A DNA stretch of 53,694 bases, from the IMG/VR virus record IMGVR_UViG_3300025108_000005. One strand, 5' to 3'. A program made the position numbers and the translations under genes. The first letter of the stretch is position 1. The number at the start of each line of letters is the position of its first letter. Positions 21,312 through 53,694 of this stretch are shown here, piece after piece. Under the pieces are notes generated by a model. It saw only the letters and a program-made list of their open reading frames with translations, had not been told where the DNA came from and ran no database searches. This DNA comes from a virus.

Positions 21312-22793
21312 CTAATAATATTCGCGTTTACGCCGCATAAACGCGGCCTCTTCTTCATCGTCATAATCACTCGGAGTGGTGATAAAACCACCCTGTCTAA
21401 AACGCAGTATAGCCTGAGTCATCGAATCCGCCAAGTCATCATGTTCACCATTGGGAAATGCGGCACATTCTTCCAACACTTCATCAGCAAAATTAGTCTC
21501 AGGTGCCCACACCATACCACTTTCAAACACTGGCGCACAGGCATGCATTCGCGTAAACTTGTCAGCGCCACGACCCGGAGTAAACGGAGTTACAGGAATA
21601 CCCATACGCCTCAACTCCTGCGTCAACGGCATTCCAGAACCTTTTTGCTCAATTAAAATCATATCAGGGTCAAACTCTCCCCAAAGATCATGAGCCGCTT
21701 TCTTTAGTTCAGGAAACTCCCACCTGCCCCTAACAGCATCAATTAAAATAATATGATCCTCACCTGTCTCCTCATGGTGAAAAATACCCCAAGTTGTTAT
21801 GGCAGAGTAGTCAGCCCTATCACTTTTACTAAACGCAGTATCGTAAGACTGGATAATATAGCTACAAGGTGGGGGATCATCTTTCTCCCAGAGGTTCCAC
21901 CACTCCCTTTTAATAATCGCACCCTCTTCTGCAGTCGGGTTCTGCATATACTGAGCATTCCATTTGCTCACCGGAATAGATGCTTTTACGCCCTCAAGCT
22001 CATCTAAAGACCAAAATTCAGGCCAGAGTGGACCGCCACTGGGCATAATTGCAGGAAACTCTACAACTTCCCACTTATCAGCACCTTTTTCACTCTGCTT
22101 CTGCAAAACCTTCGCTGTTAGATCACGAATCGACCATCGTGTCATAACAATAATAATCGCACCGCCGGGTTGCAAACGCTGTCGAGGACCAGAAGTGTAC
22201 CATTCGTAGATATTATCTAACGCAGTTACACTTAACGCATCTTGTTCCGAAACAGGATCGTCAATAATCGCGAGGTCAGCACCGCGACCCGCAAGCGCAC
22301 CGCCAACGCCAACCGCGTAATATTCGCCACCACCGTTTGTACTCCAGCGGCCACTCGCTTTCGCATCTGTTGCAAGACTGACATTAGGGAAAACATCACG
22401 AAAATCCTCGCTATCAATTAGATTTTTAACCTTACGACCAAAGCCAACAGCCAACTCAGCCGTGTGAGTCGCCTGAATAATCTTTAAATCAGGCCGTCTA
22501 CCCATCAGCCACGTTGGAAACAAATAACTCGCGAACTCAGACTTCGTATGTCGAGGCGGCATATTCACAATCAAACGCTTCAACTTTCCATCCGCTACAT
22601 CCTGCAGCTTCTGAGCGTAAATCTTGTGGTGCCTGCCCTCAATAAACTGAGGCCAAACATGCTTTACAAAATTCATAAAGTTGTCGTGCTTTTCCGACCT
22701 ATCATCTAACGTTTTAAGCCGCTCCAACATGGGAGCGACTTTCGCTAACTCTTCGTCGGTTAGATACTTAGTAAAATCACTAAGATCATTCAT
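21312..22793 (-). CDS. terL: Terminase large subunit
   Basis: 493 aa with a terminase-like ATPase core (..NMPPRHTKSE.., Walker-B-like DLAIIDDP) and a C-terminal nuclease-like half. Confidence 0.85.
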   Translation of the reverse strand: MNDLSDFTKYLTDEELAKVAPMLERLKTLDDRSEKHDNFMNFVKHVWPQFIEGRHHKIYAQKLQDVADGKLKRLIVNMPPRHTKSEFASYLFPTWLMGRRPDLKIIQATHTAELAVGFGRKVKNLIDSEDFRDVFPNVSLATDAKASGRWSTNGGGEYYAVGVGGALAGRGADLAIIDDPVSEQDALSVTALDNIYEWYTSGPRQRLQPGGAIIIVMTRWSIRDLTAKVLQKQSEKGADKWEVVEFPAIMPSGGPLWPEFWSLDELEGVKASIPVSKWNAQYMQNPTAEEGAIIKREWWNLWEKDDPPPCSYIIQSYDTAFSKSDRADYSAITTWGIFHHEETGEDHIILIDAVRGRWEFPELKKAAHDLWGEFDPDMILIEQKGSGMPLTQELRRMGIPVTPFTPGRGADKFTRMHACAPVFESGMVWAPETNFADEVLEECAAFPNGEHDDLADSMTQAILRFRQGGFITTPSDYDDEEEAAFMRRKREYY

Positions 22794-22796: not shown

Positions 22797-25700
22797 TTAC
22801 CCCGCAAGAGCTTTCAGGAAGTTATCCGCAGTGCGATTTAAACCCGCCATTCCACCATCCTGCATAGGACGAATGTTCGCAGAAATCGGAGCAATCTTAG
22901 GCGCACGCGTTGTAATGCGCGCCATAATATCATCAAATCTACGAGATGATGGAATACCTATCCCAATTGGAGATGATACCGTATCAGACTTCTCCTCTTC
23001 CGCAGGTGGCTCACACATGTCTGTATCAGAGTTGTAAACATAACCCTCATCGTTACAGACCTTGTTTCCATCATCATCAGTTGTGTAGTTCTTTATCTCT
23101 TCAGAACCATCGTCACCGCCAGTGGTTGTTTCAGTCACACCAAGAGCCTCGGCAACGTTCTGACCGCCGCCAACTTCAAGTGGAACAGTTCCGTCTGTAA
23201 TCTCAACTACATTGCCACCTGCATCAACAAAGAACTCTTTACCATCTGAGGTAATAAATCCTTGCTCCGTTGACATGCCCGTAGGATCTGCACTCGCAGC
23301 AGTTGATTGTGCGCCAAAGACCTGCTGGAAGCGATCATAATCTGAAACACCATCACCATCTGCGTCAGCTTTATATGCAGGATTGCTATATGCAGGAAGA
23401 CTTAACGTCTGACCAACTGTAAGAGCGTCAGCTTGTGCATTCAGGCCAGAACCCCTTAGTGAATCAATCATATCCTGTGTGACAGTAAATGAAGATGCCT
23501 CAGAACTCGGCGGCATAAAGGCCATAATATCATCTGCCGCAAGAACCTTATCTGCAAAGGTATCCATAGTGCTTATGTCAAACCCAATGTAGTTGCCATC
23601 CTCATCAGTCTTCGGTGTTGCGCCATTCTGTAGCGCATACACATGCTGATCAATAATCGCCTGACGATTCTCACGGCTTGAGCCACGCAGCTTGTCAGCC
23701 AAAGGCTTGCCAAGACCAAAGCCCAAGCCACCAATAACGTCATAGAAAATTGACTCTATGCCAGTCGGCTCTGCCTGATCGCCAATTTGCTGCTTGATCT
23801 TCTCAACATTATCATCGCGACGACCTTGCTCAACCTGTCTGCCAGTCTCACTCGCAGCACCAATCGTAAGAGCAGTAGAACCTGCGCCCTTATCCAAGCC
23901 ACGCGAAATTCCCTCAAACTGCTTACCAAGCGCAGCTTCAAACTCTTCTGGAGTCAACTTGCCACTCTTCAAATCAGAAAGACCCTTGCCGCCAGCCAAG
24001 TCATTCATAACCAAATGCGTACCAATACGCTCCTGAGTGCCCTCGTCAAACTTAGCATTAGGATCAACAATTCCCTGATCAACCAAGGACTGCAACGTAG
24101 AGCCAACAACCTGATATTTACCAGCAGGCGTAGAAATAACACCAGAACCATCTGCACGAGTCATGCCACGCTGCGTGTTAACGCCTTGAGAGTAAGCAGC
24201 ATAAGAATCTTTGCCACGCAGATTCTGGAAGTCCAAGACCTCCTGAACCGTCATGTTCGTTAAATCAACGCCAAAGCGCCCCTCTTGACCACCAAGAAGA
24301 CGACCATAACCGCCCTCATCAGCCGTACCTTCAGCGCGAGAAATACGATTTTTAATCTCAGAGAGCGAAGTATAACCAGCTTCTGGCGGAGCAAAATCCT
24401 GAACAGTAGATGGAGCACCCAATCCACGCTCCAGATCAGAAACAGGACCACTTGGAAGCCCCATATCATCATCCGTAAGTGGAACATTAGTAACACGATC
24501 ACGATCAAATGGGTCCATGTCAGCATCAAGGTTCCGACCAGCCTTAGATACGTTAAGGTCAAGTATATTATCGTCAATGCCATACGTCTCTATCCCTCGA
24601 GAAGATGCAGGTAGAAATTGAGTAATGTCAGGGTCATTCATAGATGTTATAGGCTGAACTCCTAAAACACCGCCTCTAGTATCACCTAAAGGTGGAAGAC
24701 CGCCAACGCCAGCAATGTCGCTGTAAGTAATTGGTGACGGATCAAAGATATTAATCTCACGACCCTCTGGATAATTCTGAAGATACGTTGGGTAAGCCCT
24801 AGCAGCGGCTCGATTCGCTTGCTCTGGACTGTCAAAAATACCTGATTCACGAGCCGTAGCAGAAAAACTATCTATTCCCTGCTGACCAGAACCATACAAA
24901 CGTAACTGCGCAGCAAACGCACGATCAGCCGTGTCAGCCGCCGCCTGCGAGTCATGCTGATTCCCACGGCGATCCGTATATACAGGGGCAGAAACAGGAT
25001 CAATAACACTAATCACAGACGATCCGGCATTACCAGATGACGCAGTATTCAAAATATCATCAATGCTAGAACCAGTCGCAACAGTCACATTGCCACCACC
25101 AGTGTCATACGTGGTCGTACCAGTCCCAGATGTTAAATCCGCAACCGTTACAGTCTTGTCAGAACCACCAACACCAAGATCAGCGTCCTTCGCACTCGTG
25201 TTTACAGAACTTGAATCATCATCGCCGCCAAAAATCGCATCGTGATAATCAGCTACATTGTCAAAAGTATTCCCGCCATAGCTGAAACTCGTATTATCAT
25301 CCGCCTGAACGGCAGCATTCGCAATCGCATCTAAACTTACATTTCCAGATGGACCAATTGAAGAACTGTCATCATTATCGCTCTTCGCCATATCTTTTAG
25401 ACTATCCCTCACCTTGTTAATCTCAGCATAATCCCTGCTAATCACACTTTCAGGCGGATAACTCGGGATACCAGCAGGACCAGAAATGCCTGAACCACCA
25501 AAACTACGAAGCAAAGCCTCCTCATCCTGATTAATATACGCCAACATATGCGGCTGATCAGCAATCATAGTGCTGCGAGGAACAGAATCACCGCCGAAAG
25601 GGCCAGATACCTCTCCCCCCATACGCATATTATTCACATCGCCATACCCATAAAGATCAACATCACCAGTATCTATAGGCGCAATACCAGAATACATCGT

Positions 25701-27125
25701 CCCATAAGTCGGCGTACTCAAGAAATCAAAAATATCAATCTCAACAGGTCGCGCAGGCAATTTAATCGCCCCAATAGGACTCGTAGCAACCATTTCAGGA
25801 CCGTAACTCGTCGTTAAACCACCCGTAATAGGATCAGTCATATACTGAGAAACACTCGTAGGAATGTTGACCTTAGGGCCAAATAATGCAGCCTGCTCAC
25901 GCGTACCCAGCGTAACAACGCCAGTCTCAGGATCAACAGTGTCATAACCACCAGTCGTCCTACCAACATCACCAGTAAACTGACTGTAATCAATCTCATT
26001 AACCTCACTAGGATCAACAGGAGCAGCCGTATAACTACCAGTGCCAAAATTACCACCAGCACCTACCGCACTGCCAGCACCAGCTTGCGCCCCAGTAATC
26101 GTAGAAACAGGAGCAGAAGTAACCTTATCCACAGAAACAGAAGCCTGAGAAGGTGCCTCATATTCACCAACATAAACACGAACAGGAGTCCAACCTGTCT
26201 CGTCACTACCCTCCCAGTTAAGAACATTATCACCAAAACGATAATTCATAATGTCCGCCATATCCATAACAGCACCACGAGTGCTGCGGTAACGACCATC
26301 ACCCAAATCCTCATAGCCAGCATTCAATAAATTAGAACGAACCATAGACTCACGAGCAGGATCAGACGAATAACCAGAACGTGCCTCACCCATATAATCA
26401 AAACCCTGACCCTCAATCGCAGATTTAGCCGCAGAAATACTGCCATAACCAGCCTGAACCGTCGGGTCTAAATCATCACGACCAAAAAGCGCATTAAACG
26501 AAACAGGATTACCCGAAGAATCAACAACCTTGTAACGCTCACCGCTACGAACAACATTCAAATCAGAACCAGAACCTAAACCAGACGAAGATGACTCCTT
26601 AACCAAGTCATAATACTCATCCATACTACCAATCCCCTCACCCAAAACAGGGGGACCACCATCCTCAAAATACTGTACAGGACCACCATCAGCATAACCA
26701 AAAATATCAACCTCACCACCCATAGCCATAGGACGAGGCGCCATAGACTGCATCGGAGGAGTACGCATCATAGGAGTGCCCGGCGCAACCATACGCTGCT
26801 GTGGCATCATCTGGGGCGGCATCGCACTCTGAGGCTGTGGCATGGACGCACCCAAACCCTGATTGCGACCCAACATCCCCTCTAACGCATCGCCAAAACG
26901 ACGACGACGACCCGCCGTAGATCCCTGCATCTGCTGACCCTGAGGCATAGGTGGCATCTGAGGAGGTGGACCCCCAGCCAACGGCATCGGAGGCATAGGC
27001 GCAAAAGGATTCGGAGGGGGAGCAGATGGCATGCCCGGTGAAGGCGGCATACCACCCATAGGCTGCATCGGTGCAGGCATTCCGGGCATCGGCGGGGGAG
27101 TCATTCCAGTCTTAACTGCAGGCAT
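22797..27125 (-). CDS. Giant internal-virion/ejection-type protein (1442 aa) with Met/Pro-rich N-terminus and lytic transglycosylase domain
   Basis: Start re-set to the ATG at 27123-27125 with SD AGGAGA. It is a single ORF, and the stop abuts the terL start. Confidence 0.9.
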   Translation of the reverse strand: MPAVKTGMTPPPMPGMPAPMQPMGGMPPSPGMPSAPPPNPFAPMPPMPLAGGPPPQMPPMPQGQQMQGSTAGRRRRFGDALEGMLGRNQGLGASMPQPQSAMPPQMMPQQRMVAPGTPMMRTPPMQSMAPRPMAMGGEVDIFGYADGGPVQYFEDGGPPVLGEGIGSMDEYYDLVKESSSSGLGSGSDLNVVRSGERYKVVDSSGNPVSFNALFGRDDLDPTVQAGYGSISAAKSAIEGQGFDYMGEARSGYSSDPARESMVRSNLLNAGYEDLGDGRYRSTRGAVMDMADIMNYRFGDNVLNWEGSDETGWTPVRVYVGEYEAPSQASVSVDKVTSAPVSTITGAQAGAGSAVGAGGNFGTGSYTAAPVDPSEVNEIDYSQFTGDVGRTTGGYDTVDPETGVVTLGTREQAALFGPKVNIPTSVSQYMTDPITGGLTTSYGPEMVATSPIGAIKLPARPVEIDIFDFLSTPTYGTMYSGIAPIDTGDVDLYGYGDVNNMRMGGEVSGPFGGDSVPRSTMIADQPHMLAYINQDEEALLRSFGGSGISGPAGIPSYPPESVISRDYAEINKVRDSLKDMAKSDNDDSSSIGPSGNVSLDAIANAAVQADDNTSFSYGGNTFDNVADYHDAIFGGDDDSSSVNTSAKDADLGVGGSDKTVTVADLTSGTGTTTYDTGGGNVTVATGSSIDDILNTASSGNAGSSVISVIDPVSAPVYTDRRGNQHDSQAAADTADRAFAAQLRLYGSGQQGIDSFSATARESGIFDSPEQANRAAARAYPTYLQNYPEGREINIFDPSPITYSDIAGVGGLPPLGDTRGGVLGVQPITSMNDPDITQFLPASSRGIETYGIDDNILDLNVSKAGRNLDADMDPFDRDRVTNVPLTDDDMGLPSGPVSDLERGLGAPSTVQDFAPPEAGYTSLSEIKNRISRAEGTADEGGYGRLLGGQEGRFGVDLTNMTVQEVLDFQNLRGKDSYAAYSQGVNTQRGMTRADGSGVISTPAGKYQVVGSTLQSLVDQGIVDPNAKFDEGTQERIGTHLVMNDLAGGKGLSDLKSGKLTPEEFEAALGKQFEGISRGLDKGAGSTALTIGAASETGRQVEQGRRDDNVEKIKQQIGDQAEPTGIESIFYDVIGGLGFGLGKPLADKLRGSSRENRQAIIDQHVYALQNGATPKTDEDGNYIGFDISTMDTFADKVLAADDIMAFMPPSSEASSFTVTQDMIDSLRGSGLNAQADALTVGQTLSLPAYSNPAYKADADGDGVSDYDRFQQVFGAQSTAASADPTGMSTEQGFITSDGKEFFVDAGGNVVEITDGTVPLEVGGGQNVAEALGVTETTTGGDDGSEEIKNYTTDDDGNKVCNDEGYVYNSDTDMCEPPAEEEKSDTVSSPIGIGIPSSRRFDDIMARITTRAPKIAPISANIRPMQDGGMAGLNRTADNFLKALAG
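23980..24350 (-). other. Lambda-R-like (GH104-type) lytic transglycosylase domain inside the giant protein
   Basis: RAEGTADEGGYGRLLGG...STPAGKYQVVGSTL parallels lambda R WSEGT...GYDVIVGG...STGAGRYQLL. The putative catalytic Glu codon is at 24330-24332. Confidence 0.65.
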
Positions 27126-27178
27126 CCAATAAATTCTCCTAAACGAACCTAACACGCATCCTAACAGCTACTCAAAAT

Positions 27179-27418
27179 TTAATCAATAATCTCCAACAAT
27201 CCATTACGAATCATGCTACGCGCCAAACTATCCCGGTCCGTAAAACAATAATGATCACCACTCCACTCACACATCTCAATCGCCATCCTGCGCAAAAAAA
27301 TATCCTCACGCTCTCCAGATCCCAAAACATGACCCGCATGCAAAATCGGAACAACCTCTCCCGCAGTCTGACCATCAAACTCTAAACTCGTACCGTAACT
27401 CAACCTAAATGTCGGCAT
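27179..27418 (-). CDS. Hypothetical small protein (first gene of the late operon)
   Basis: Start re-set to the ATG at 27416-27418 (MPTFRLSYG...). 79 aa. Confidence 0.6.
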   Translation of the reverse strand: MPTFRLSYGTSLEFDGQTAGEVVPILHAGHVLGSGEREDIFLRRMAIEMCEWSGDHYCFTDRDSLARSMIRNGLLEIID

Positions 27419-27549
27419 AACTCTTCCCCATCTCCAATAACTTCGGCAATCCAATCGGAGCAGAATAACCCTCACCATGAGAGTTCTTACCCTGCAACAG
27501 GCATAAAACTCGGCCTCATATGCCCTCTCCTTATACTAACATGTGGTAC

Positions 27550-27579
27550 TTTATGGGACAGTCTAGGGTACCTTGTCAA
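27550..27579 (-). promoter_or_regulatory. Sigma70-like promoter for the late operon
   Basis: Minus strand reads TTGACA(27574-27579)-18 nt-CATAAA(27550-27555). The -35 overlaps an iteron copy. Confidence 0.45.
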
Positions 27580-27676
27580 GCCGTAGGGTACCTTGGAAGG
27601 GACAAACGGTGACATCCACCTTTAGGGGGTGTCCCTTGTCCATAGGGTACCTTGAAGGGCTTAGGGTACCTTGTGA

Positions 27677-27696
27677 TTTTTTTAAAAAATTTTTTT
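27677..27696. promoter_or_regulatory. T7-A6-T7 tract (possible DNA-unwinding element)
   Basis: tttttttaaaaaattttttt lies immediately next to the iteron pairs. Confidence 0.5.
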
Positions 27697-27790
27697 GTGG
27701 TGACTGTAGGTGGATTTCTTAGTGTAAGTGCTGTCCGACACGCGCCAGAATATAGGGGGGGGTGCATGGCCCCCATATCCCCCGTTTCTA

Positions 27791-27802
27791 GAACAATTGT
27801 TC
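27791..27802. promoter_or_regulatory. Perfect 12-bp palindrome GAACAATTGTTC (copy 1)
   Basis: Exact palindrome in intergenic DNA between the amidoligase terminator and the iterons. Confidence 0.85.
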
Positions 27803-27829
27803 GGTTTTCTTAGGGTACCTTGGAAAAGC

Positions 27830-27852
27830 AAAAAAGCCCGCACTAGGCGGGC
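27830..27852 (-). terminator. Rho-independent terminator after the amidoligase gene
   Basis: Minus strand reads GCCCGCctagtGCGGGC followed by tttttt. Confidence 0.75.
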
Positions 27853-27882
27853 TTCTCTGTGGCTGTGGCATGGTCTTGACGC

Positions 27883-28953
27883 TTAACGCGCCAAGTATTC
27901 TATTCGCTCTTGCCAATATTCAAATATGTCGTCGGATGTTTCAGCCCATATTGACGCGATGCCACGCTCGCTTTCGTCGCGCAATTGAACAGCGCCGTCG
28001 GTTGTCTGAAACGCCGTCAACACTTCGTAGCGCGTGTGATCTGTTCCGTCACCATATGACGCGCCGTTTGATTGTTGCGTGTGGGTGACAACCGCGCTTT
28101 CGCCAACGCGCTGCCGGATTTCAGTAACAGCGGCGCGGACGCGCTGCTCACTACAGCCGGTTGCGTCCATGATGTCGCGCGTTGAAACGCCACCATTATC
28201 ATTGCGCATCATGGTGTACTGAACGCCAACGCGTGAATTTCTGCGAAATGGCCCAACCGGCGTATCTTGAACAATTGTTCTGGTGCCATTTTCAACGCGG
28301 TTTTCAATTGTGTGGTTGATGAAATTCAAAAGGAATTTTACCCAATTGATAATTTTGTCCGCGTCAATTGTGCCACCATGCTGACGAAATTCAATTGTGC
28401 CACTACGCCATGTGTCGAGATTAATCGCATAGAATTTGCCATGATTTAATTCGCTAATTGTTGAAGCGTTTTCTATGCGCGATGCGCTCAATGGTTGCGC
28501 GTATCGGTTCATGGTGCGCGAACGTGCAAACATACTATCCAGCGTTGCTTGCTGGCGCTCATAGCGATACATGATGTCCTTTACCACCACGGCGTCCATA
28601 GGTTCACCATGCGCTGACAGAAAACCACCACGCGCCTCAGTGTGTGCAATGCTTGCACCAGTAAAATCTGCGGCGTTTACGCCGTCTAATGGCGCGTTTG
28701 AAATGTGAACGTGCAAGCCACATGATGTATTGATTGCACAACCAACGTTTTCCAAAACGCGGCAAACGCTTTTGATATAGTCCTCAGCAATTGGATGATT
28801 GCCCAATGGTGGCAATACGATTTCAGCGTCAACGTTCGGTGTGCCGTCTGGCTTTACTTGGCAACCGATAATTCCAGCGCGTTCCAGTGCATTTTTAACG
28901 CGGCTTATTGAAACGCCGCTTGTTTCGATTTCTATTCCAAATGTGTAAGTCAT
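27883..28953 (-). CDS. Putative amidoligase (Amidoligase_2 / GS-like COOH-NH2 ligase family) with about 110-aa C-terminal extension
   Basis: N-terminal FGIEIE, central CGLHVHIS and GTIEFRQHGGT match my recollection of the Amidoligase_2 signature. The C-terminal STRDIMDATGCSEQRVRAAVTEIRQRVG looks HTH-like. Confidence 0.75.
   Translation of the reverse strand: MTYTFGIEIETSGVSISRVKNALERAGIIGCQVKPDGTPNVDAEIVLPPLGNHPIAEDYIKSVCRVLENVGCAINTSCGLHVHISNAPLDGVNAADFTGASIAHTEARGGFLSAHGEPMDAVVVKDIMYRYERQQATLDSMFARSRTMNRYAQPLSASRIENASTISELNHGKFYAINLDTWRSGTIEFRQHGGTIDADKIINWVKFLLNFINHTIENRVENGTRTIVQDTPVGPFRRNSRVGVQYTMMRNDNGGVSTRDIMDATGCSEQRVRAAVTEIRQRVGESAVVTHTQQSNGASYGDGTDHTRYEVLTAFQTTDGAVQLRDESERGIASIWAETSDDIFEYWQERIEYLAR
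28269..28280. promoter_or_regulatory. Perfect 12-bp palindrome GAACAATTGTTC (copy 2, inside the amidoligase CDS)
   Basis: Encodes RTIVQ at about residue 224, where the recognisable amidoligase core ends. Confidence 0.85.
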
Positions 28954-29068
28954 TGTTTTTGTTACCTTTTTTCTAGATTGTAGGGCAAAGCTGTCGCCCT
29001 ATACCTAGTTTATGCGCCATTTTTTCCCATAATACAAGGGGTTTTGTGGGATATTGTGGGATAAACCA

Positions 29069-29080
29069 GAACAATTGTTC
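29069..29080. promoter_or_regulatory. Perfect 12-bp palindrome GAACAATTGTTC (copy 3)
   Basis: Lies upstream of the amidoligase gene. The extended match GAACAATTGTTCGGGTT(A/G)TTG is shared with copy 4. Confidence 0.85.
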
Positions 29081-29110
29081 GGGTTATTGATTTGACCAAC
29101 GCCGCGACAC

Positions 29111-29138
29111 AAAAAAAGCGCGCCAAAATTGACGCGCG
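29111..29138 (-). terminator. Rho-independent terminator (minus strand)
   Basis: Minus strand reads GCGCGtCAAttTTGgCGCGC followed by ttttttt. Confidence 0.7.
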
Positions 29139-29183
29139 AAAATCGGTTTTTTTTATATTTATAGAGAACGCGCGCGATCATGC

Positions 29184-29236
29184 GTGTGTATATGTGTATA
29201 TGTGTGTAGTTATATATACATAGGTATATATACTAT
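29184..29236. repeat. Alternating purine-pyrimidine (TG/TA)n tract
   Basis: gtgtgtatatgtgtatatgtgtgtagttatatatacataggtatatatactata. Confidence 0.85.
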
Positions 29237-29237
29237 A

Positions 29238-29299
29238 CCCCGAACCCCGAAGCCCGAAGCCCGAACCCCGAAAGCCCGACCCCGAAGGATCAGGCCCGA
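29238..29299. repeat. Tandem heptamer array (G/C)CCCGAA (TTCGGG(G/C) on the minus strand)
   Basis: Five perfect back-to-back 7-mers at 29238-29272, then three more units with small spacers up to 29299. Confidence 0.9.
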
Positions 29300-29303
29300 T
29301 TGT

Positions 29304-29600
29304 TTATTTCATTGTATGCGCAAGTGTTGTCATTGCACTCGTTGTCGGGTTCCCGTTGTTCACGATAAAAGTATAGCAATGAACGTTGCAGGCAAGAACA
29401 CCGAAGCGTTCAGCGTCATGGTATCTCATGAATTGAGGCTCCTCATCCATATCAACTGGTTCAGAAGTGCCGTAGTTTTTAACTGCCCATTGGCAAAATT
29501 CTTGGAAAGGCTTTTCGTCCTCATATTCAAACCCGCTCGTGTCATCATAAAACAGCGCGGTTGCCCAAAACTCGGGCAACTCCAGTGTGATCGTTTCCAT
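29304..29600 (-). CDS. Hypothetical acidic protein
   Basis: Start re-set to the ATG at 29598-29600 (TAATG coupling, SD GAGGGGG). 98 aa, METITLELPEFW... Confidence 0.75.
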   Translation of the reverse strand: METITLELPEFWATALFYDDTSGFEYEDEKPFQEFCQWAVKNYGTSEPVDMDEEPQFMRYHDAERFGVLACNVHCYTFIVNNGNPTTSAMTTLAHTMK

Positions 29601-29788
29601 TATTCCACCCCCTCTAATACTTCCATTGCATGCTCTAAGGCTTCTTGCTCGTTGTCGATTCCGTAGCAAGTAAAGCAATGATAATCGACCCACTGTCCTT
29701 GGATCGGGGTCTGCAAGTTAAAAGTTGCTGACTCGTTCCACTCAATGCGAAGATAATCGCCGTTATGCTCTAATTCCCAGTGTTTCAT
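29600..29788 (-). CDS. Hypothetical small protein
   Basis: 62 aa with SD AAGGAG. Confidence 0.75.
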   Translation of the reverse strand: MKHWELEHNGDYLRIEWNESATFNLQTPIQGQWVDYHCFTCYGIDNEQEALEHAMEVLEGVE

Positions 29789-29799
29789 TGTTTTTCTCC

Positions 29800-30111
29800 T
29801 TAATATCTGGCTGCGTAATAGCGCATTTGATCAATGGCCACATCGTTTGCAATTTTATAATTACCTTCGTCGTACTGACGCATAATAAATGCTTTCAGCG
29901 CATTTTCGTTATTGCAAATAAAATCCAAGAAATCGTCACGATCTTCTTCGTCGTCAAAATCAATCACTCCATCAATATTGCGCGATGCATCTCTAAAAAC
30001 GATGTCGTGCTTTAGAAACTGATCGTCATATGAGCCATTGTCTTTGATAAGAGTGTTCAGCACTTGCTCTGTGTCGTACTGCCTACCTGTTTCGATCATT
30101 TTAAAAAACAT
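29800..30111 (-). CDS. Hypothetical acidic protein
   Basis: Start re-set to the ATG at 30109-30111 with SD GAGGAAAAAG. 103 aa. Confidence 0.75.
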   Translation of the reverse strand: MFFKMIETGRQYDTEQVLNTLIKDNGSYDDQFLKHDIVFRDASRNIDGVIDFDDEEDRDDFLDFICNNENALKAFIMRQYDEGNYKIANDVAIDQMRYYAARY

Positions 30112-30143
30112 TTTCTTTTTCCTCACTACTAGACTGTAATCCC

Positions 30144-30172
30144 ACATTATCCCACACATTATTATATGTCAA
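30144..30172 (-). promoter_or_regulatory. Sigma70-like promoter for the 3-gene cassette
   Basis: Minus strand reads TTGACA(30167-30172)-17 nt-TAATGT. The spacer carries TGGGATAatgTGGGAT. Confidence 0.45.
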
Positions 30173-30195
30173 CACAAAATATAAAAAAAATTATG

Positions 30196-30486
30196 CCGGG
30201 CCGTGCCGGGTAAAACTGCCGGGGATTCATCCGGGCGCGAACAATTGTTCGGGTTGTTGTTCCGGGAATGCGTCGGGAGTTTACCGGGAAGGAGTTCCGG
30301 GCAGGCCAGCGACGGGAAGATGTTACCGGGGAGCTTTACCCGAACAATTTCTCGGGTTATACTATACCCGGAAGCCCGAATCCCGAATGCCCGGAGAGCC
30401 GCAGAGCGCCCCTAAGAGTTAACCCGAACAATTTAGGCACCCAGACACCCCGAAAACCCGAAACCCCGACCAGACGGCCCCGAAAA
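30196..30486. repeat. Dispersed short-repeat array: about 12 (C/T)CGGG units at 10-14-bp spacing, then about 7 CCCGAA units
   Basis: CCGGG/TCGGG at 30196, 30206, 30219, 30231, 30250, 30262, 30273, 30284, 30297, 30311, 30325. CCCGAA at about 30339, 30374, 30381, 30423, 30449, 30457, 30479. Confidence 0.85.
30239..30250. promoter_or_regulatory. Perfect palindrome GAACAATTGTTC (copy 4; 14-bp CGAACAATTGTTCG here)
   Basis: Embedded in the CCGGG array. Confidence 0.85.
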
Positions 30487-30531
30487 CGGCTCTGAGGGCG
30501 GGCGGAAGCCCCTCCCCTCCAAGAGTTCCCG

Positions 30532-31056
30532 CTATTCTGCGGCTTCGCCGTTACAATCAGTTATAGGGATTGGTTCGGATTCTGTGGGATTTTCTGTTGG
30601 TGTTACGTCAATCATGCGATTTTTAGCACGATCCATAAATTCTTGCAGTTGTTCTACGATTTGATCCCTGCTGAGATTATCAACGTGTTCGTGTGTGACA
30701 TGGCTACGCGCTACCATGAGGCCCGTGACCTTTAGCCTAAGTTCTTCTGCTTTGATAGCTGCGGAGAAGTTGCCTTGCTCCCATGCCTCATCGCGCAACC
30801 GCTGCATATCCCGAACAGATTTGGTTATTGTTACGCCGTACTTGCTTTCGAGTTCTTGGCGCATTTCTTCCATGCGTTCTTTTACGCGTGGATGATTGAG
30901 AAGCTGCACGGCTGATACGTTCGGGTTTTTATATCCCGCTGCTCTGGCTGCTGCGGTTTGCGTCATGTCTTTGTGAATGTAGTTATCAAGAAACTTCTGC
31001 TGCGGGGGAGTTAGTCGCTTTTCCCCTTTTGCTATCTGTTCTCCGACCTTTGGCAT
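30532..31056 (-). CDS. terS: Terminase small subunit (Terminase_2-like HTH)
   Basis: LTPPQQKFLDNYIHKDMTQTAAARAAGYKNPNVSAVQLLNHPRVKERM is the typical TerS N-terminal HTH, followed by a coiled-coil core. Confidence 0.75.
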   Translation of the reverse strand: MPKVGEQIAKGEKRLTPPQQKFLDNYIHKDMTQTAAARAAGYKNPNVSAVQLLNHPRVKERMEEMRQELESKYGVTITKSVRDMQRLRDEAWEQGNFSAAIKAEELRLKVTGLMVARSHVTHEHVDNLSRDQIVEQLQEFMDRAKNRMIDVTPTENPTESEPIPITDCNGEAAE

Positions 31057-31101
31057 TTGTGCTTCTACCCGAATAATTTCTCGACTTGTTCCCCTGCTGT
31101 T

Positions 31102-31129: not shown

Positions 31130-31190
31130 GTGCTACATTTCCCAAAATATCCCAACATTGCATCGGGCTGCGCTGCGTTAAAAAACATCA

Positions 31191-31226: not shown

Positions 31227-31390
31227 TGACGTAGATAACGTAAATTAACCTATTGATTTTATTACGTTATTTACGTCAAAACGACTTTTTAACGTAATTC
31301 CCGTAAATCGTTAAACCGTTGATTTTATTACATATTCTACGTTACGTTACTTACGTCAGCTTTTGACGTAAATTATTTTGACGTAAATTA
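31227..31390. repeat. ACGT-core repeat array (TGACGTAA / TTACGTCA), including a perfect tandem 15-mer
   Basis: About 10 ACGT cores in 160 bp. ttttgacgtaaatta occurs at 31361-31375 and 31376-31390, with inverted copies at 31270-31281 and about 31350. ttgattttattac is duplicated at 31253 and 31319 (66-bp period). Confidence 0.9.
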
Positions 31391-31415: not shown

Positions 31416-31445
31416 TTGACAGTCCCAAACTATCCCATATATAAG
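31416..31445 (+). promoter_or_regulatory. Early rightward sigma70-like promoter
   Basis: TTGACA(31416-31421), spacer gtCCCAaacTATCCCAt, then TATATA/TATAAG. AAGGAGG lies before the ATG at 31484. Confidence 0.6.
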
Positions 31446-31483
31446 ATGTATATTCTAGTAAGCAAGGAGGCTACAGAATCCAC

Positions 31484-31879
31484 ATGGATTACACAGCAAA
31501 AACACGAATCATCCGCGATCTACAGGGCGACCTATTAGATAGCAATCACGCAACCCGCCGCTTTTTCCGCTGTTGGTTGGACGGCTCTTATTTGGGCGAG
31601 GAGCACTACAGGGACAACGTTGCGTATTTGCGCCAGTCTTTGTCTCGCTATGGCGTAGGCATGAAGTTAGAGGCCAAAATTCGCGGTTGGGTGATTGGTC
31701 AATTTGTGCGCTACACGGCGCACGATGCTCAGTGTTCACACGGTTACGCTCAGAGGGTTATCGTTGACACGGTTGATGGCGAAACGCTGTCAGAGTTGAC
31801 GCATCATTTAATCACGGACGCGCTTGATCTGATTGAAGATGATATTCGCGAACATTTGAAGGAAACTGCTAATGTTTGA
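31484..31879 (+). CDS. Hypothetical early protein
   Basis: 131 aa with a strong SD AAGGAGG. Confidence 0.85.
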   Translation: MDYTAKTRIIRDLQGDLLDSNHATRRFFRCWLDGSYLGEEHYRDNVAYLRQSLSRYGVGMKLEAKIRGWVIGQFVRYTAHDAQCSHGYAQRVIVDTVDGETLSELTHHLITDALDLIEDDIREHLKETANV

Positions 31880-32099
31880 GATTGAAAAAGGTATTCCGAT
31901 TCCAGATGGCGAGGGGCGTGGGCGCGAGAAAAGCCCATTGCGCCTTGCTGTGGAGAAAATGGAAGTTGGCGATAGCGTTTTGGTTAGTAAAACGCACCGT
32001 CAGCAGCTTCATGCCGTGTCGAATACACTTGGCATTAAGTACAAAACCCGAACAATTTGCAAAGAAAGCAAAACGGTTCGTTTTTGGCGCACAAAATAA
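31872..32099 (+). CDS. Small hypothetical protein (MFEIEKGIPIP...VGDSVLV...VRFWRTK)
   Basis: 75 aa, overlapping the upstream stop. Confidence 0.8.
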   Translation: MFEIEKGIPIPDGEGRGREKSPLRLAVEKMEVGDSVLVSKTHRQQLHAVSNTLGIKYKTRTICKESKTVRFWRTK

Positions 32100-32103
32100 C
32101 ATT

Positions 32104-32126
32104 GGGGGCGCAATGCCCCCTTTATT
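32104..32126 (+). terminator. Weak terminator or attenuator hairpin
   Basis: GGGGGCgcaatGCCCCC followed by tttatt. Confidence 0.45.
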
Positions 32127-32143
32127 CTAGCAAAGGAGAAGAC

Positions 32144-32545
32144 ATGTATTATTTAGCATATGGAATGAACACGAACCGCGAGGCTATGGCTGCGCGATGC
32201 CCTAATGCCAAGCCTATGGGCGGCTTTTATTTACCTGACCACCGTTTGACGTTTCGCGGAGTGGCTGACTTTCGCTACGATGCTGACATGGTTTTACCAG
32301 TTGTTTTGTGGGAGATTACGCACGATTGTTTGAGGGCGTTAGACCGACTTGAGGGCTACCCGACTTTGTACGACCGCCGCAAGATCAACGGCAATTGGTT
32401 GATTTACGATATGAACGGCAACAAGGGCGCACTGGGCACACCGTCTGGCGGCTACTATAAAATGATTGAGGAGGGCTACCGAGACTTTGGGCTTGATGAT
32501 TGGTATTTACGCGCTGCGGCGAAAGATGCGGAGTTAGCGGCATGA
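32144..32545 (+). CDS. Gamma-glutamyl cyclotransferase-like (AIG2/GGCT family) protein
   Basis: Start re-set to the ATG at 32144 with SD AAAGGAGAAG. MYYLAYGMNTN...ALDRLEGYPTLYDRR matches the YxxYGSN...LD.xEG..Y.R signature. Confidence 0.8.
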   Translation: MYYLAYGMNTNREAMAARCPNAKPMGGFYLPDHRLTFRGVADFRYDADMVLPVVLWEITHDCLRALDRLEGYPTLYDRRKINGNWLIYDMNGNKGALGTPSGGYYKMIEEGYRDFGLDDWYLRAAAKDAELAA

Positions 32546-32688
32546 GCAAGAAAGATTTACTGATTGCGTTGCTTGAGGAAATGGAGAGCGACCTAAAGCG
32601 GATCGACTGGCAAGATATTTTTATTGCTGTTGCTGTGTTCGGTTTAGTTGTTCTCTGGATTTGGGGGTGTCATTATCAATGGTGGTAG
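32542..32688 (+). CDS. 48-aa protein with C-terminal TM helix
   Basis: ATGA overlap with the GGCT stop. MSKKDLL...IFIAVAVFGLVVLWIWG. Confidence 0.6.
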   Translation: MSKKDLLIALLEEMESDLKRIDWQDIFIAVAVFGLVVLWIWGCHYQWW

Positions 32689-32716
32689 ACCCTGACACAA
32701 CCCGAATAATATGAAG

Positions 32717-32747
32717 CCCCCGCCTGATAACGAGCGGGGGTTTTTTT
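32717..32747 (+). terminator. Strong rho-independent terminator
   Basis: CCCCCGCctgataacgaGCGGGGG followed by T7. Confidence 0.85.
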
Positions 32748-32788
32748 ATGCGTTACAATTCTGGGCGAGTTTCCCCCGATGAAACCTG

Positions 32789-32817
32789 TTGACTTGGGAT
32801 TTATCCCATGCTATGTG
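32789..32817 (+). promoter_or_regulatory. Sigma70-like promoter between two terminators
   Basis: TTGACT-17 nt-TATGTG. The spacer is the inverted repeat TGGGATttATCCCA. Confidence 0.55.
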
Positions 32818-32823
32818 AGGGGT

Positions 32824-32906
32824 GCTTGGGTTTCCGATCATTGTTTCCCCAAGCATGCTTCATGGACTAGACTAGCCCCCGACTTGAAATAGTTGGGGGT
32901 TTTTTT
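32824..32906 (+). ncRNA. Candidate small RNA of about 80 nt (own promoter, internal hairpin, own terminator)
   Basis: Hairpin GCTTGGG(32824-30)...CCCAAGC(32848-54), then a terminator at 32876-32906. There is no ORF and no SD in the interval. Confidence 0.45.
32876..32906 (+). terminator. Rho-independent terminator
   Basis: CCCCCGACttgaaataGTTGGGGG followed by T7. Confidence 0.8.
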
Positions 32907-32919
32907 ATAATTTTTTTTA

Positions 32920-32948
32920 TTGACACTGAATAAATTATATTATATGTA
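32920..32948 (+). promoter_or_regulatory. Sigma70-like promoter
   Basis: TTGACA-17 nt-TATGTA, followed by TGGGAT. AAGAGGAG lies before the ATG at 32983. Confidence 0.6.
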
Positions 32949-32982
32949 TGGGATGTCTAGCATATAAGAGGAGTTTAATATC

Positions 32983-33420
32983 ATGGGCTTAGATATGTAT
33001 TTACGCGGCGACAAGTTCGTCAGTTCTTGGGATCATTCGCAGCGCGATGAGAACGGTAGGTCGTTAGAGGTAAAGCGTCCACAGATGGATGGGTTTGAGG
33101 TTACGTCTTACGTTCTTGACCTTGGCTACTGGCGCAAGTTCGCGCCGTTGCACACTTTCATCGTGAGAGTGTTTGCGAATGACGAGGATAATTGCCAACC
33201 GATTGATTTGGGTGCCGAGGATTTGCGCCGTATTGCTGCCGCAATTCGTGACGGTAATTTGCCTGATGATGAGGGCAGCACTGGTTTCTTTTTTGGTTCG
33301 CCTGAGTTCTGGGATGAGTACCGCGCCGAGGCTGAGGAGCATGCGCAGACGTTCGAGAAAGCTGCGGCTTGGATTGATTCCGATTCTTGGAACACCGTTA
33401 CCTATCAAGCGAGTTGGTAA
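32983..33420 (+). CDS. Hypothetical acidic protein (MGLDMYL... family)
   Basis: 145 aa with a strong SD. Confidence 0.85.
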   Translation: MGLDMYLRGDKFVSSWDHSQRDENGRSLEVKRPQMDGFEVTSYVLDLGYWRKFAPLHTFIVRVFANDEDNCQPIDLGAEDLRRIAAAIRDGNLPDDEGSTGFFFGSPEFWDEYRAEAEEHAQTFEKAAAWIDSDSWNTVTYQASW

Positions 33421-33421
33421 G

Positions 33422-33712
33422 ATGAAAGACATGTTGATCGAGATGCAAGAGACGCCGATCATGGACCCGTGTTCCGAGTGCCGAGGTACGGGGACCGTTG
33501 AGTATGAGGTTGCGCGTCCTCAGAGTTTCAGTCGTGACATTGGCGAGATCGATGTTGAGGAGAAGACTTGCGAGGCGTGTGCTGGCGGCGGCGAGGTGCC
33601 GCGATTGTGTGATTGCGGTGAGGAGGTAACGAAGGCCCGATTGGATGGCAATGTTCATTACATTATCAACGGGCGTGATTTTGACAAATGCGAGGAGTGT
33701 GCGAATGCATAG
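33422..33712 (+). CDS. DnaJ-type (CxxCxGxG) zinc-finger protein
   Basis: Start re-set to the ATG at 33422. Contains CSECRGTG and CEACAGGG plus CDCG and CEEC. Confidence 0.8.
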   Translation: MKDMLIEMQETPIMDPCSECRGTGTVEYEVARPQSFSRDIGEIDVEEKTCEACAGGGEVPRLCDCGEEVTKARLDGNVHYIINGRDFDKCEECANA

Positions 33713-33938
33713 GAATGTTTACCCGAACACGCGCAAGGCTATGGATCAGTCTTTAGCTTTGTTGTGTGACGCGGCAAAGGATTCATTAAAGTATTATGCT
33801 AATCATTACCCGAACAATTCCGAGGTTGCATTGATGAAGGGCGACATGAATAGCTTTGAACGTGAGTTGCGCCGATGCATTGATAACCATGTTATCATGA
33901 TGTGGAGAAATGAGTGGTTTGAGGAGAAGAATTTATGA
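33705..33938 (+). CDS. Hypothetical protein
   Basis: Start re-set to the ATG at 33705, overlapping the upstream stop. 77 aa. Confidence 0.7.
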   Translation: MHRNVYPNTRKAMDQSLALLCDAAKDSLKYYANHYPNNSEVALMKGDMNSFERELRRCIDNHVIMMWRNEWFEEKNL

Positions 33939-34273
33939 CTTATGAAGAAAATACAATGTGCATGAAATACACGTTGGAGCGTCTTGGCGATATCAAGACG
34001 CAAACTGATTTGGACGAGTTTAAGGACGAGATTCGGAATGATCTGGAGGTTAACAGTCAATGGCGTTCAGTTAACGATTATAACCCGAACATTTCTGAAG
34101 TTATTGAGCCAGATGACTTTGATGTGTATCGTGCAATTGATAATGTAAAACGCAATTACATTGAGAGAGCATTGACCCGATCAAAGAACATTGGCGAGGC
34201 TTCAAAGATGTTAGGTGTTCGTAATTACCAGACGTTGCAGAATTGGATGGTAAAGTTAGGAGTGGACTATTGA
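33935..34273 (+). CDS. Fis-type HTH DNA-binding protein
   Basis: The C-terminus IERALTRSKNIGEASKMLGVRNYQTLQNWMVKLGV resembles the Fis/NtrC HTH_8 motif. Confidence 0.75.
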   Translation: MTYEENTMCMKYTLERLGDIKTQTDLDEFKDEIRNDLEVNSQWRSVNDYNPNISEVIEPDDFDVYRAIDNVKRNYIERALTRSKNIGEASKMLGVRNYQTLQNWMVKLGVDY

Positions 34274-34503
34274 TTTATTATTTCACTGCGCTTGTAATTA
34301 CTTACAGCATGGATGCTGAGAGGATTACGACTTCCTACATTTTGTACGATAAGAAGCGGCATTGCCAAGAGGCTTTGCAGGGTCTTGCCGACCCGATTTA
34401 TAATCAGATTTATGAGTTATATGAGGGTACAATGATGCAATGCGTTGTGTCCGATAAAGTTTCATATGTGTTAAAACCGAAGTTGAGGCCCGAAAATGGA
34501 TGA
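34270..34503 (+). CDS. Hypothetical protein with hydrophobic N-terminus
   Basis: TTG at 34270, 7 nt after AGGAG, with a TTGA overlap on the upstream stop. An alternative start is the ATG at 34309. Confidence 0.55.
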   Translation: MIYYFTALVITYSMDAERITTSYILYDKKRHCQEALQGLADPIYNQIYELYEGTMMQCVVSDKVSYVLKPKLRPENG

Positions 34504-34660
34504 TAGATTAGCAATTGTGAGCGATGAAATTAAGCGTTTGCAGCGTGAGTATGACGATGCTGAATGGGAAGGCGATCCGAGGTCAACAGAGTTGGCAAAG
34601 GAGTTGAATTATTATAACAAACTGCACGAACAGGGTGTTGTTTTTGAGCCTAAGTTTTAG
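34496..34660 (+). CDS. 54-aa hypothetical protein (not in ORF track)
   Basis: The ATG at 34496 overlaps the upstream stop. MDDRLAIVSDEIKRLQREYDD...EPKF. Confidence 0.55.
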   Translation: MDDRLAIVSDEIKRLQREYDDAEWEGDPRSTELAKELNYYNKLHEQGVVFEPKF

Positions 34661-34724: not shown

Positions 34725-35069
34725 TTATTTATTTTTTTTCTGTGGCAAGTCCCACGTTCTGATGTCGCTCATAACCTGACTTACATTTACGTCTAAATAA
34801 TGCGCAATGCGTTCAATTGTAATTTCATCATTTAGCATTCTATTGACTTGTTTAGCCCGAACAGATGCACGTTTGGGCCATTTGTATTCGTTTTGATCAT
34901 TTATTTTTGTAGGTGTTTTTGGTTCACGCGGTTTAACGACTTCTTTTGGTTCGTCTTGTTTGTTGCGCCATCCCTCTTGCTTTCTTGTCATTTCCAACAT
35001 TCTAGCTATTTCGGATTCTGTTGGCGGTCTTTTGTATAGCTTTGTAAATGAATCTAAGATGTTAACCAT
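34725..35069 (-). CDS. Hypothetical protein (possible C-terminal HTH)
   Basis: 114-aa ORF. Confidence 0.8.
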   Translation of the reverse strand: MVNILDSFTKLYKRPPTESEIARMLEMTRKQEGWRNKQDEPKEVVKPREPKTPTKINDQNEYKWPKRASVRAKQVNRMLNDEITIERIAHYLDVNVSQVMSDIRTWDLPQKKNK

Positions 35070-35450: not shown

Positions 35451-35480
35451 AGCTTCTCCTTTTCCTAGATTAACTTGGGA

Positions 35481-35509
35481 TAATTACCACACTATCCCAT
35501 GTCAGTCAA
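35481..35509 (-). promoter_or_regulatory. Sigma70-like promoter
   Basis: Minus strand reads TTGACT-17 nt-TAATTA, with ATGGGATA in the spacer and TATCCCA just downstream. Confidence 0.5.
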
Positions 35510-50040: not shown

Positions 50041-50051
50041 AATTGTTCGCC

Positions 50052-53670: not shown

Positions 53671-53694
53671 GCCCCTGCTTCGCTAAAATTATAA
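53671..53694. repeat. Terminal overlap (copy of nt 1-24)
   Basis: Identical 24-mer. Confidence 0.95.

Follow-up and report, generated by a model that had tools for sequence, protein, structure and literature searches.

In phage P1, the operators of the C1 repressor are asymmetric elements of about 17 bp found at many loci, where they occur either singly (monovalent operators) or as overlapping inverted pairs that form an incomplete palindrome (bivalent operators). The stoperators of the mycobacteriophages L5 and Bxb1, which are the sites of gp71, are 13-bp asymmetric sequences present in many copies within short intergenic spaces and oriented with transcription; they are thought to halt the elongating RNA polymerase and not to occlude promoters. 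BirA combines an ATP-dependent ligase with a winged helix that reads a palindromic operator, and it ties transcription to the state of the enzyme. Phage amidoligases (Pfam Amidoligase_2) are widespread, often together with gamma-glutamyl cyclotransferase-like partners; to our knowledge, their function has never been established. Here we describe a repeated element in a phage sequence of 53,694 nucleotides (IMG/VR virus record IMGVR_UViG_3300025108_000005; the window, hereafter), which occurs as a 12-bp palindrome, GAACAATTGTTC, and as single units, around the genes for the small terminase (TerS) and for an amidoligase with a C-terminal extension. We read these sequences, with moderate confidence, as a dispersed network of mono- and bivalent operators that would most likely be recognized by a winged helix fused to the amidoligase.

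As in P1, the element is dispersed and asymmetric, and has both monovalent and bivalent forms. However, C1 serves a temperate plasmid-prophage as its stand-alone immunity repressor, whereas here the proposed binder is fused to an enzyme and the sites lie within about 10 kb. The stoperators are spread genome-wide in a temperate phage and are bound by an immunity repressor; in contrast, the sites studied here form a local cluster, and half of the strong ones are palindromic. BirA has an N-terminal winged helix-turn-helix (wHTH) domain, a single operator and the unrelated fold of the biotin-protein ligases, whereas the phage protein would carry a C-terminal wHTH on a glutamine-synthetase-like Amidoligase_2 enzyme and has many candidate sites. 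The operators of SmtB/ArsR regulators are inverted repeats with TGAACA-NN-TGTTCA cores in a 12-2-12 layout (PMC8790569). The phage site contains GAACA-AT-TGTTC in a 10-2-10 layout, and the predicted fold of the amidoligase extension is also like that of the ArsR/SmtB and MarR families, but this is a resemblance only: there is no membership at the sequence level, and the nearest Pfam families are DUF3489 and HTH_23. In the T4-type elements called PeSLs, a promoter and a stem-loop are conserved and exchange junctions map to them (PMC2839356, PMC4122927). As in that case, short conserved sequences recur here between the small accessory genes of a hyperplastic region, each with its own promoter and terminator; in contrast to PeSLs, the word conserved here is neither of these two but a third element that lies between them, and breakpoints do not fall sharply on it. 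Finally, the 14-bp core is of the LexA (Cheo) box type, CGAAC-N4-GTTCG, and is identical to the dnaE2 box of M. tuberculosis (PMC8607333), but the phage element differs from LexA boxes in its invariant centre, extra conserved flank, common half-units, dependence on a phage gene and constancy across GC contents.

The palindrome and its asymmetric unit

Exact copies of GAACAATTGTTC start at positions 27791, 28269, 29069 and 30239, as described in the initial annotation, with no further exact copy in the window. Dinucleotide-preserving shuffles contained 0.02 copies on average, and none of 100 reached four. Copies 3 and 4 had been reported to share a 21-bp extension and to flank a three-gene cassette (29304-30159), and they do: both contain GAACAATTGTTCGGGTT(A/G)TTG (21 nt at 95% identity) in the same orientation, 1170 bp apart. 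The five half-sites proposed were also found, with one position corrected from 33811 to 33809. The 11-mer half, CCCGAACAATT, occurs exactly at 30339, 30423, 32047, 33809 and 37139, as well as in one arm each of copies 3 and 4 (seven occurrences versus 0.07 expected). When up to two mismatches were allowed, ACCCGAACAATT was detected 27 times versus 4.9 expected. The commonest 12-mer of the entire sequence is AATTGTTCGGGT, and the asymmetric 13-mer AACCCGAACAATT is the most over-represented word of the 53.7-kb genome. The genome-wide count against a shuffled background, suggested with the initial annotation, thus revealed over-representation of the motif.

On the coding (minus) strand, the sequence at each of the palindromes is (A)ACC(C)GAACAATTGTTC, with a variable flank on the far side. 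The basic element is the asymmetric 13-mer AACCCGAACAATT, of which the 12-bp palindrome is the two-sided (bivalent) form. Two inverted units that share AATT produce the palindrome, and their ideal combination is a 22-bp site of 10-2-10 layout. Two recurrences pointed out at the gene junctions near 50041 and 51339 are real, but we regard them as translation-start contexts and not as members of the site family: an identical 22-mer, TAAGGCGAACAATTATGGCTGA, which comprises a stop codon, a ribosome-binding site (RBS) and ATG-GCT-GA, is present at 50033-50054 and 51331-51352 on the minus strand, at two consecutive gene junctions, and GGC replaces the ACCC flank. A third AAGGCGAACAATT, at 38190, has 9 nt in common with the operator unit and is without the ACCC flank.

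The four palindromes lie in different surroundings. Site 1 (27791-27806, minus strand), which reads AACCGAACAATTGTTC on the coding strand and holds palindrome copy 1 (27791-27802), is located 77 nt past the stop codon of the amidoligase gene (27883-28953, minus strand), just beyond its intrinsic terminator and upstream of a TAGGGTACCTTG array and of the late-operon promoter. Site 2 (28269-28284, minus strand; ACCAGAACAATTGTTC) holds copy 2 inside the amidoligase coding sequence, within T-R-T-I-V-Q codons. The bivalent site 3 (29065-29085, minus strand; AACCCGAACAATTGTTCTGGT on the coding strand), with copy 3, is found behind the terminator of the three-gene cassette (29118-29137) and 112 nt ahead of the amidoligase ATG. 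Site 4 (30235-30255, minus strand; AACCCGAACAATTGTTCGCGC), also bivalent and holding copy 4, is located 281 nt past the TerS stop codon, inside a CGGG-periodic array and 67 nt upstream of the cassette promoter TTGACA.

The other sites are degenerate or single. A degenerate bivalent site, ACCCGAACAATTTCTCGGGT (30338-30357, plus strand), lies in the spacer of a promoter-like sequence, TTTACC-N17-TATACT (30335-30363), directed antisense into the 3' end of the TerS gene. Monovalent units on the plus strand include ACCCGAACAATT in the TerS 3' flank (30422-30433); ACCCGAATAATT, with one mismatch, in the TerS 5' untranslated region (5'UTR; 31067-31078), which is 10 nt ahead of the TerS ATG and downstream of a TTGACC-N16-TAGTAT promoter (31129-31102, minus strand); a unit at the 3' end of a 75-aa open reading frame (ORF), about 90 nt upstream of the gene GGACT (32046-32057); and another inside the ORF 33645-33938 (33808-33819). 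One-mismatch copies are located at 34083-34094 and, as TCCCGAACAATT, inside the primase/helicase gene (37138-37149, plus strand), which has a second copy at 37270-37281 (minus strand).

In the direction of transcription, the common layout consists of an ORF stop codon, an intrinsic terminator, a gap of about 9-25 nt and then AACCCGAACAATTGTTC, which is followed by 35-110 nt of cassette-specific short repeats, a TTGACA-N17-TATAAT promoter, a 5'UTR, an RBS and the next ORF. Among the oriented asymmetric sites (n = 236), a run of at least five Ts was present within 50 nt upstream in 41% (median gap 18 nt) and downstream in 22%. No conserved partner element was detected at a −35/−10 distance from the motif.

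Conservation in relatives and coupling to the amidoligase gene

An IMG/VR protein search with TerS provided relatives, and the best 80 of 275 (88-98% identical) were fetched; these 80 TerS-anchored loci amount to 632 kb and were chosen without regard to the motif. In this DNA, the core CGAACAA occurs 894 times versus about 77 expected, upstream AACC and downstream TT are conserved around it, and the centre of GAAC-N4-GTTC is AATT in 137 of about 165 cases. An iterated weight-matrix scan yielded 689 unique sites, with an information profile approximately symmetric about AATT in which the left half is stronger; this profile looks like that of a dimer site. An exact scan for GAACAATTGTTCGGGTT recovered at least 119 contigs, and among the matches listed many have 2-5 copies in a single orientation, 0.5-1.2 kb apart. 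One relative (L083) has five direct copies 600-700 bp apart, and another (L159) has 25 copies of AATTGTTCG in 13.9 kb. Across 288 unique contexts, conservation is limited to the palindrome and one flank, with a flank information content of approximately zero beyond them. The motif is kept at equivalent positions, for instance about 79 nt past the amidoligase gene, in hundreds of uncultured marine phage contigs with GC contents of 36-57%, and the CGAACAATTGTTCG core is the top word in relatives spanning 36%-57% GC. An unchanged core over this range argues for a binder encoded by the phage and not for a host factor.

The positions of the sites were tested in regions anchored on neighbouring genes, so that the motif was not used to choose them, by searching unique flanks for the 17-mer in sense orientation with up to two mismatches. 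Sorting the sites into coding and non-coding classes on the basis of ORFs proved unreliable, because repeat arrays produce spurious ORFs, and the gene-anchored tests were used instead. The 17-mer was present within 450 nt downstream of TerS in 61 of 62 flanks, upstream of the amidoligase gene in 35 of 50 (about 105 nt ahead of the ATG) and downstream of it in 26 of 43 (77-85 nt past the stop codon); shuffled flanks were never nearer than five mismatches to it. A ACCCGAACAATT-type unit, oriented as at 30422, was observed within 200 nt past the TerS stop codon in 58 of 59 relatives (up to two mismatches). The TerS 5'UTR unit, again with up to two mismatches, was present in 58 of 113 unique upstream regions, 10-15 nt ahead of the ATG, where in relatives it lies downstream of a TTGAC(C/G)-N16-17-TA(G/A)TAT promoter. 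The sites are therefore conserved in relatives, at syntenic positions.

We then related the sites to the genes that accompany them. Among contigs selected by the motif, 96 of 112 encode a TerS homolog and 78 of 112 an amidoligase. In loci extending from TerS to the late genes, the amidoligase and the sites occur together in 65 of 66 (the exception is L028), and in loci anchored on the late gene g99 they do so in 14 of 15 (the exception is L282). All 79 counted spanning loci with an amidoligase have sites, in addition to about 25 contigs of a divergent clade. Within this TerS-anchored clade, each contig that reaches at least 3 kb downstream has an amidoligase and 5-19 CGAACAATT; the exception, L286, is the same contig as L282 and is without the amidoligase. 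No unit with up to one mismatch was found in the 9.8, 4.9 and 14.2 kb of the amidoligase-less L028/L026 and L282/L286. TerS is kept in these site-less lineages, with 93% identity in L028 (relative L026) and 72% in L282/L286, and a Fis-like gene is retained in L028 and L282. In L026 and L028, the TerS 5'UTR unit, which is outside the deleted segment, has decayed to AATTTTTTAGGTAG, while TCGGGG/CCCGAA and GGTACCCTA arrays persist in the amidoligase-less lineages. These data show that the motif tracks the presence of the amidoligase gene, and the lineages that have lost this gene represent natural knock-out controls.

Two copies of AACCCGAACTATA are present in L282 (5819-5831 and 5847-5859), intergenic and 28 nt apart; they have the left part of the unit and a different right part. 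When a cassette gene of the L028 lineage was used to look for further members, the search gave only an unrelated contig.

The amidoligase extension and the possible readings of the sites

The 356-aa amidoligase matches Pfam Amidoligase_2 over a core of residues 36-211. Copy 2 falls on codons 225-229 (R-T-I-V-Q), in the linker between the end of this match (residue 211) and the C-terminal domain, in agreement with the earlier observation that it marks the point where the enzyme core ends and an extension begins. Conservation is much higher in residues ~225-356 than in the enzyme core, and within these residues the helix-turn-helix (HTH) sequence TTREIMDATGCSEQRVRAAVSEIR is nearly invariant. Of 22 homologs, 21 match Pfam DUF3489 (best E-value 8.7e-6) and 20 match HTH_23, all of them below the curated cut-offs. 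In an AlphaFold2 model of the extension (predicted local distance difference test, pLDDT, of 73), helices 25-34, 42-49 and 53-67 are followed by strands 72-76 and 91-108, which form a beta wing. Foldseek matched this model in the PDB to the winged helices of MepR/MarR, SmtB/ArsR and PefI/PapI with probabilities of 0.97-0.99. From this model and the Pfam matches, the extension is predicted to have a winged-helix, DNA-binding-type fold, with a DUF3489-like domain at residues ~241-324 (nt 27982-28233, minus strand). The amidoligases of cultured phages (Porphyromonas, Bacillus, Arthrobacter) align to residues 1-~230 only, and none has the extension.

The possibility that copy 2 is a fusion junction or a recombination scar was rejected, because all homologs have the C-terminal domain and most are without the internal palindrome. 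Site 2 was retained in 4 of 7 DNA variants encoding RTIVQ, and about 5 of some 100 variants of the homologs have it; in two relatives (L041 and L056), a full ACCCGAACAATTGTTC is present at this position by means of a CGA Arg codon.

A set of operators for a dimeric HTH protein was one of the two readings offered initially, and it is supported by the syntenic conservation, the dimer-like profile, the AATT centre and hairpins that are weak and not conserved. Of the binders then considered, the amidoligase extension gained support from its near-invariant winged helix and from the occurrence of sites only where its gene is present. In contrast, the Fis-type HTH protein (33935-34273) is disfavoured, since homologs of it are encoded in the site-less L028 and L282.

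According to the reading that we favour, the network would be confined to about 10 kb around TerS, the small gene cassettes and the amidoligase, and a winged-helix dimer would bind tightly to the 10-2-10 palindromes and more weakly to single units. The places bound would be the TerS 5'UTR, the spaces between transcription units at 13-27 nt behind terminator-like T-runs, the flanks on either side of the amidoligase gene and the DNA just before the late-operon control region. From these positions we infer autoregulation together with insulation or repression: binding would autoregulate the amidoligase module, and it would insulate or repress the neighbouring transcription units by a roadblock or by looping, limiting read-through toward the late genes. 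The effect could be tied to the substrate state of the enzyme, as in BirA. The data establish the motif, its selective maintenance, its positions, its coupling to the amidoligase gene and a fold of the DNA-binding type for the extension, whereas physical binding, and an effect that may be repression, insulation or activation, are what we infer. The TerS gene is probably a target of the network and not the source of its binder.

Several observations weigh against this reading. The Foldseek E-values for the extension are weak (0.03-0.1), with TM-scores of 0.32-0.5. The first residues of the recognition helix differ between clades while the core of the motif is visibly unchanged, and no co-variation of recognition-helix variants with motif variants was seen. 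Copy 2, inside the coding sequence, is poorly conserved. Most sites are 35-110 nt upstream of −35 boxes and do not overlap the core promoter, so classical promoter occlusion is not indicated; the TerS 5'UTR unit and the 30338 site in its promoter-like spacer are the exceptions. Only two independent amidoligase-less lineages are known, and GGACT, the 131-aa ORF p131 and intergenic DNA were lost together with the amidoligase gene. Another co-lost factor, or the plain loss of site-bearing DNA, could therefore explain part of the coupling.

The same winged helix could serve a different purpose, although we consider this rather unlikely. It would be a tether and not mainly a repressor, bringing the ATP-dependent amidoligase to DNA addresses beside terminators, the terminase gene and the late-operon control region, where the enzyme, with its cyclotransferase-like partner, would covalently modify a DNA-bound target; RNA polymerase, TerS, a nucleoid protein and even the DNA are candidates for this target. 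GGACT (gamma-glutamyl cyclotransferase-like; 32145-32545, plus strand) is the probable partner of the amidoligase.

The other reading offered initially was that the palindromes are module-boundary repeats, that is, crossover points for homologous recombination between co-infecting phages with no dedicated binder. The sites do separate cassettes that are transcribed independently and vary in content, genes for a Sak4-like annealase and a Cas4-like exonuclease are present in the phage, and in two relatives (L014 and L027) some homology blocks stop at palindrome 3. In an all-against-all comparison, 10% of internal breakpoints fell within 20 nt of a site versus 3.9% at random (2.5x), but a 1.7-2x excess continued out to 160 nt without a sharp focus, and only this 10% is at a site; homology breakpoints were mostly at gene boundaries. 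The clearest insertion, the gene 29800-30109, which is absent from L001, has its limits at an RBS and a stop codon, away from the palindromes. Support for recombinational shuffling at the repeats is weak. Furthermore, boundary repeats leave unexplained the exact conservation of 13-17 nt in diverged flanks, the invariant AATT centre, the single units in the TerS 5'UTR and in genes, and the absence of sites without the amidoligase. PeSLs consist of promoters plus terminators (PMC4122927), whereas this motif is neither: the terminator before it and the TTGACA-N17-TATAAT promoter after it are separate elements. Taken together, these results make a purely recombinational role unlikely. The 29800-30109 gene (119 aa) is nearly unique to this genome: of 192 related loci, one matches it at the nucleotide level. 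It is a clean insertion relative to L001, and the RBS and stop codon at its junctions are those of the neighbouring genes.

TerS was initially suspected to be the binder, either with the sites as a multi-site pac region or with TerS acting as a regulator. The sites are on both sides of its gene, where the pac of SF6/SPP1-type phages is found, a TerS homolog accompanies the motif in most motif-selected contigs (96 of 112), and its N-terminal HTH, homologous to the DNA-binding domain of SF6/SPP1 G1P, is the best-conserved part of the protein. However, the lineages L028/L026 and L282 are site-less despite TerS proteins of 93% and 72% identity, respectively, and the arrays that persist with TerS in them are TCGGGG/CCCGAA and not the 13-mer. 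In addition, binding by the G1P-type domain is reported to be weak and essentially sequence-independent and to select bent DNA (PMC4737164), while the sites extend over more than 7 kb, some of them inside unrelated genes. Recognition by TerS is contradicted by the site-less lineages and by the properties of this domain, and it appears improbable.

It is similarly doubtful that the sites are bound by a host factor, such as a LexA-type repressor, or by another phage protein lost along with the amidoligase. CGAACAATTGTTCG is a perfect Gram-positive/actinobacterial SOS box, and TCGAACAATTGTTCGA is the LexA box of M. tuberculosis dnaE2 (PMC8607333, PMC2724278). Nevertheless, the AATT centre (137 of about 165) stands against the varied centres of the listed LexA boxes, and neither the conserved AACC flank nor the abundant single units fit a LexA dimer. 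A host factor in general is not favoured by a motif that is constant at 36-57% GC in hosts that are probably different and whose presence depends on a phage gene, and in 185,579 species genomes of bacteria and archaea the 17-mer gave 69 matches, about as many as chance would produce. The sole real match among these is a 3.2-kb phage contig (L199) binned with an alphaproteobacterial metagenome-assembled genome. A host LexA box was rejected because the centre does not vary, an additional flank is conserved, half-units occur, the GC contents are widely spread and the motif depends on a phage gene. As for a co-lost phage protein, GGACT and p131 did disappear with the amidoligase in L028 and L282, but L270 and L271 have sites and no detectable p131, and GGACT has no DNA-binding domain.

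A signal in nucleic-acid structure or RNA (hairpin, cruciform, terminator, processing site or translational operator) is very unlikely. In its favour, a 9-bp stem can form in the full 22-mer, and the unit of the TerS 5'UTR is beside the start codon. However, only one arm is conserved, it is sequence and not pairing that is kept, the predicted DNA hairpins of copies 1 and 2 (−1.2 to −1.3 kcal/mol) equal those of shuffles and those of copies 3 and 4 reach only −5, and the phage sites have T-runs upstream and no U-tract after them. In addition, each site follows a separate terminator and precedes the next promoter, and for the most part transcripts would therefore not include the sites.

Among Flavobacteriaceae, 12 loci have a single copy each of the perfect 22-bp AACCCGAACAATTGTTCGGGTT; in the one inspected (L258, 5888-5909), it lies within A- and T-runs as a bidirectional terminator hairpin beside an integrase gene, and it appears to be unrelated to the phage motif. 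Two other candidates were discarded. A 114-aa HTH protein (34725-35069) is present in only 1 of 80 relatives, and a promoter for a phage RNA polymerase or sigma factor was set aside after no member of either family was found among the large and small ORFs.

Genomic setting and meaning of the proposed network

The first 24 nt of the window (1-24) equal its last 24 (53671-53694), and because of this overlap the source is taken as a complete assembly, circular or circularly permuted, with a length of about 53,670 bp. The phage is tailed, and nearly all of its genes are on the minus strand. The structural genes occupy 1-20 kb (minus strand), including the portal gene (17474-19906, minus strand), and are followed by TerL (21312-22793, minus strand) and, immediately upstream of TerL, a gene for a 1452-aa protein (22797-27155, minus strand); the late operon comprises g99, the 1452-aa protein and TerL. 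The N-terminus of the 1452-aa protein is Pro/Met-rich and of low complexity, comparison with PHROG and Pfam gave no match, and its homologs keep the same position in relatives (in L282, a 1273-aa ORF). Beyond the amidoligase gene and the three-gene cassette of small, tightly packed ORFs (minus strand) is TerS (30532-31056, minus strand), with an N-terminal DNA-binding domain of the SF6/SPP1 G1P type. A plus-strand block (31484-34660) includes p131 (31484-31879) and GGACT. From about 35 kb, genes for a primase/helicase, a Cas4-like exonuclease, a helicase and Sak4 are encoded on the minus strand, and the endolysin gene is at 52207-52833 (minus strand). No tRNA, RNA polymerase, integrase or other lysogeny gene was found in the genome.

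The TerL protein shares 55-62% identity with that of the pelagiphages HTVC023P/HTVC027P and of phage 023Pt_psg01, and the nearest TerS homologs in cultured phages are about 29% identical. Cultured phages gave no match in a megablast of 27000-31000 or with a doubled 22-bp motif as the query. The phage group is marine, abundant and uncultured to date, and it is distantly related to HTVC023P-type pelagiphages.

Other repeats accompany the operator units in this region. TAGGGTACCTTG, which contains the palindrome GGTACC, occurs five times in 27562-27822, between the amidoligase terminator and the late-operon promoter, and looks like the sites of a separate regulator; GGTACCCTA arrays occupy the same place in the amidoligase-less L028. 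CCCGA repeats with a 7-8 nt period (29239-29300, 30367-30390 and 30449-30470) are located directly past two stop codons, that of TerS and that of the cassette gene for a 98-aa protein. The genome has just three canonical G-quadruplex motifs, and these are all within the repeats, on the coding (minus) strand; TCGGGG arrays similar to them persist in relatives without the 13-mer. Downstream of TerS, CGGG recurs every 10-15 nt (11 intervals) at 30197-30327. For small terminases of the SF6/SPP1 type, it has been proposed that bent DNA is wrapped by HTH motifs spaced at about one helical turn (PMC4737164), and this CGGG region could be pac.

An inverted pair of 18 nt (94% complementary; 29045-29062/30139-30156) flanks the three-gene cassette. 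GTGGGAT(A/T)/ATCCCA boxes are found beside most of the sigma-70-like early promoters (31130-31160, 31425-31440, 32795-32812 and 35470-35500). On the coding strand, TCTAG precedes the RBS by 5-10 nt in many 5'UTRs (28972-28977, 30129-30133 and 31454-31458, and further at 32126-32130, 32956-32960 and 35465-35469) and may be a common transcript-start or processing signal. The divergent control region between TerS and the plus-strand block (31227-31390) is dense in TTACGT/ACGTAA inverted and direct repeats, for instance TGACGTAGATAACGTAA / TTACGTTATTTACGTCA and two 32-nt direct repeats, which look like the operators of yet another regulator.

Through the motif, an abundant and uncultured group of marine phages can be recognized and its regulatory layout decoded in part. 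An enzyme fused to a predicted DNA-binding domain with a defined target of 13-22 bp would also provide an experimental handle on the function of phage amidoligases. If the winged helix were a tether, site-directed amidoligation would be a mechanism of phage control or anti-defence.

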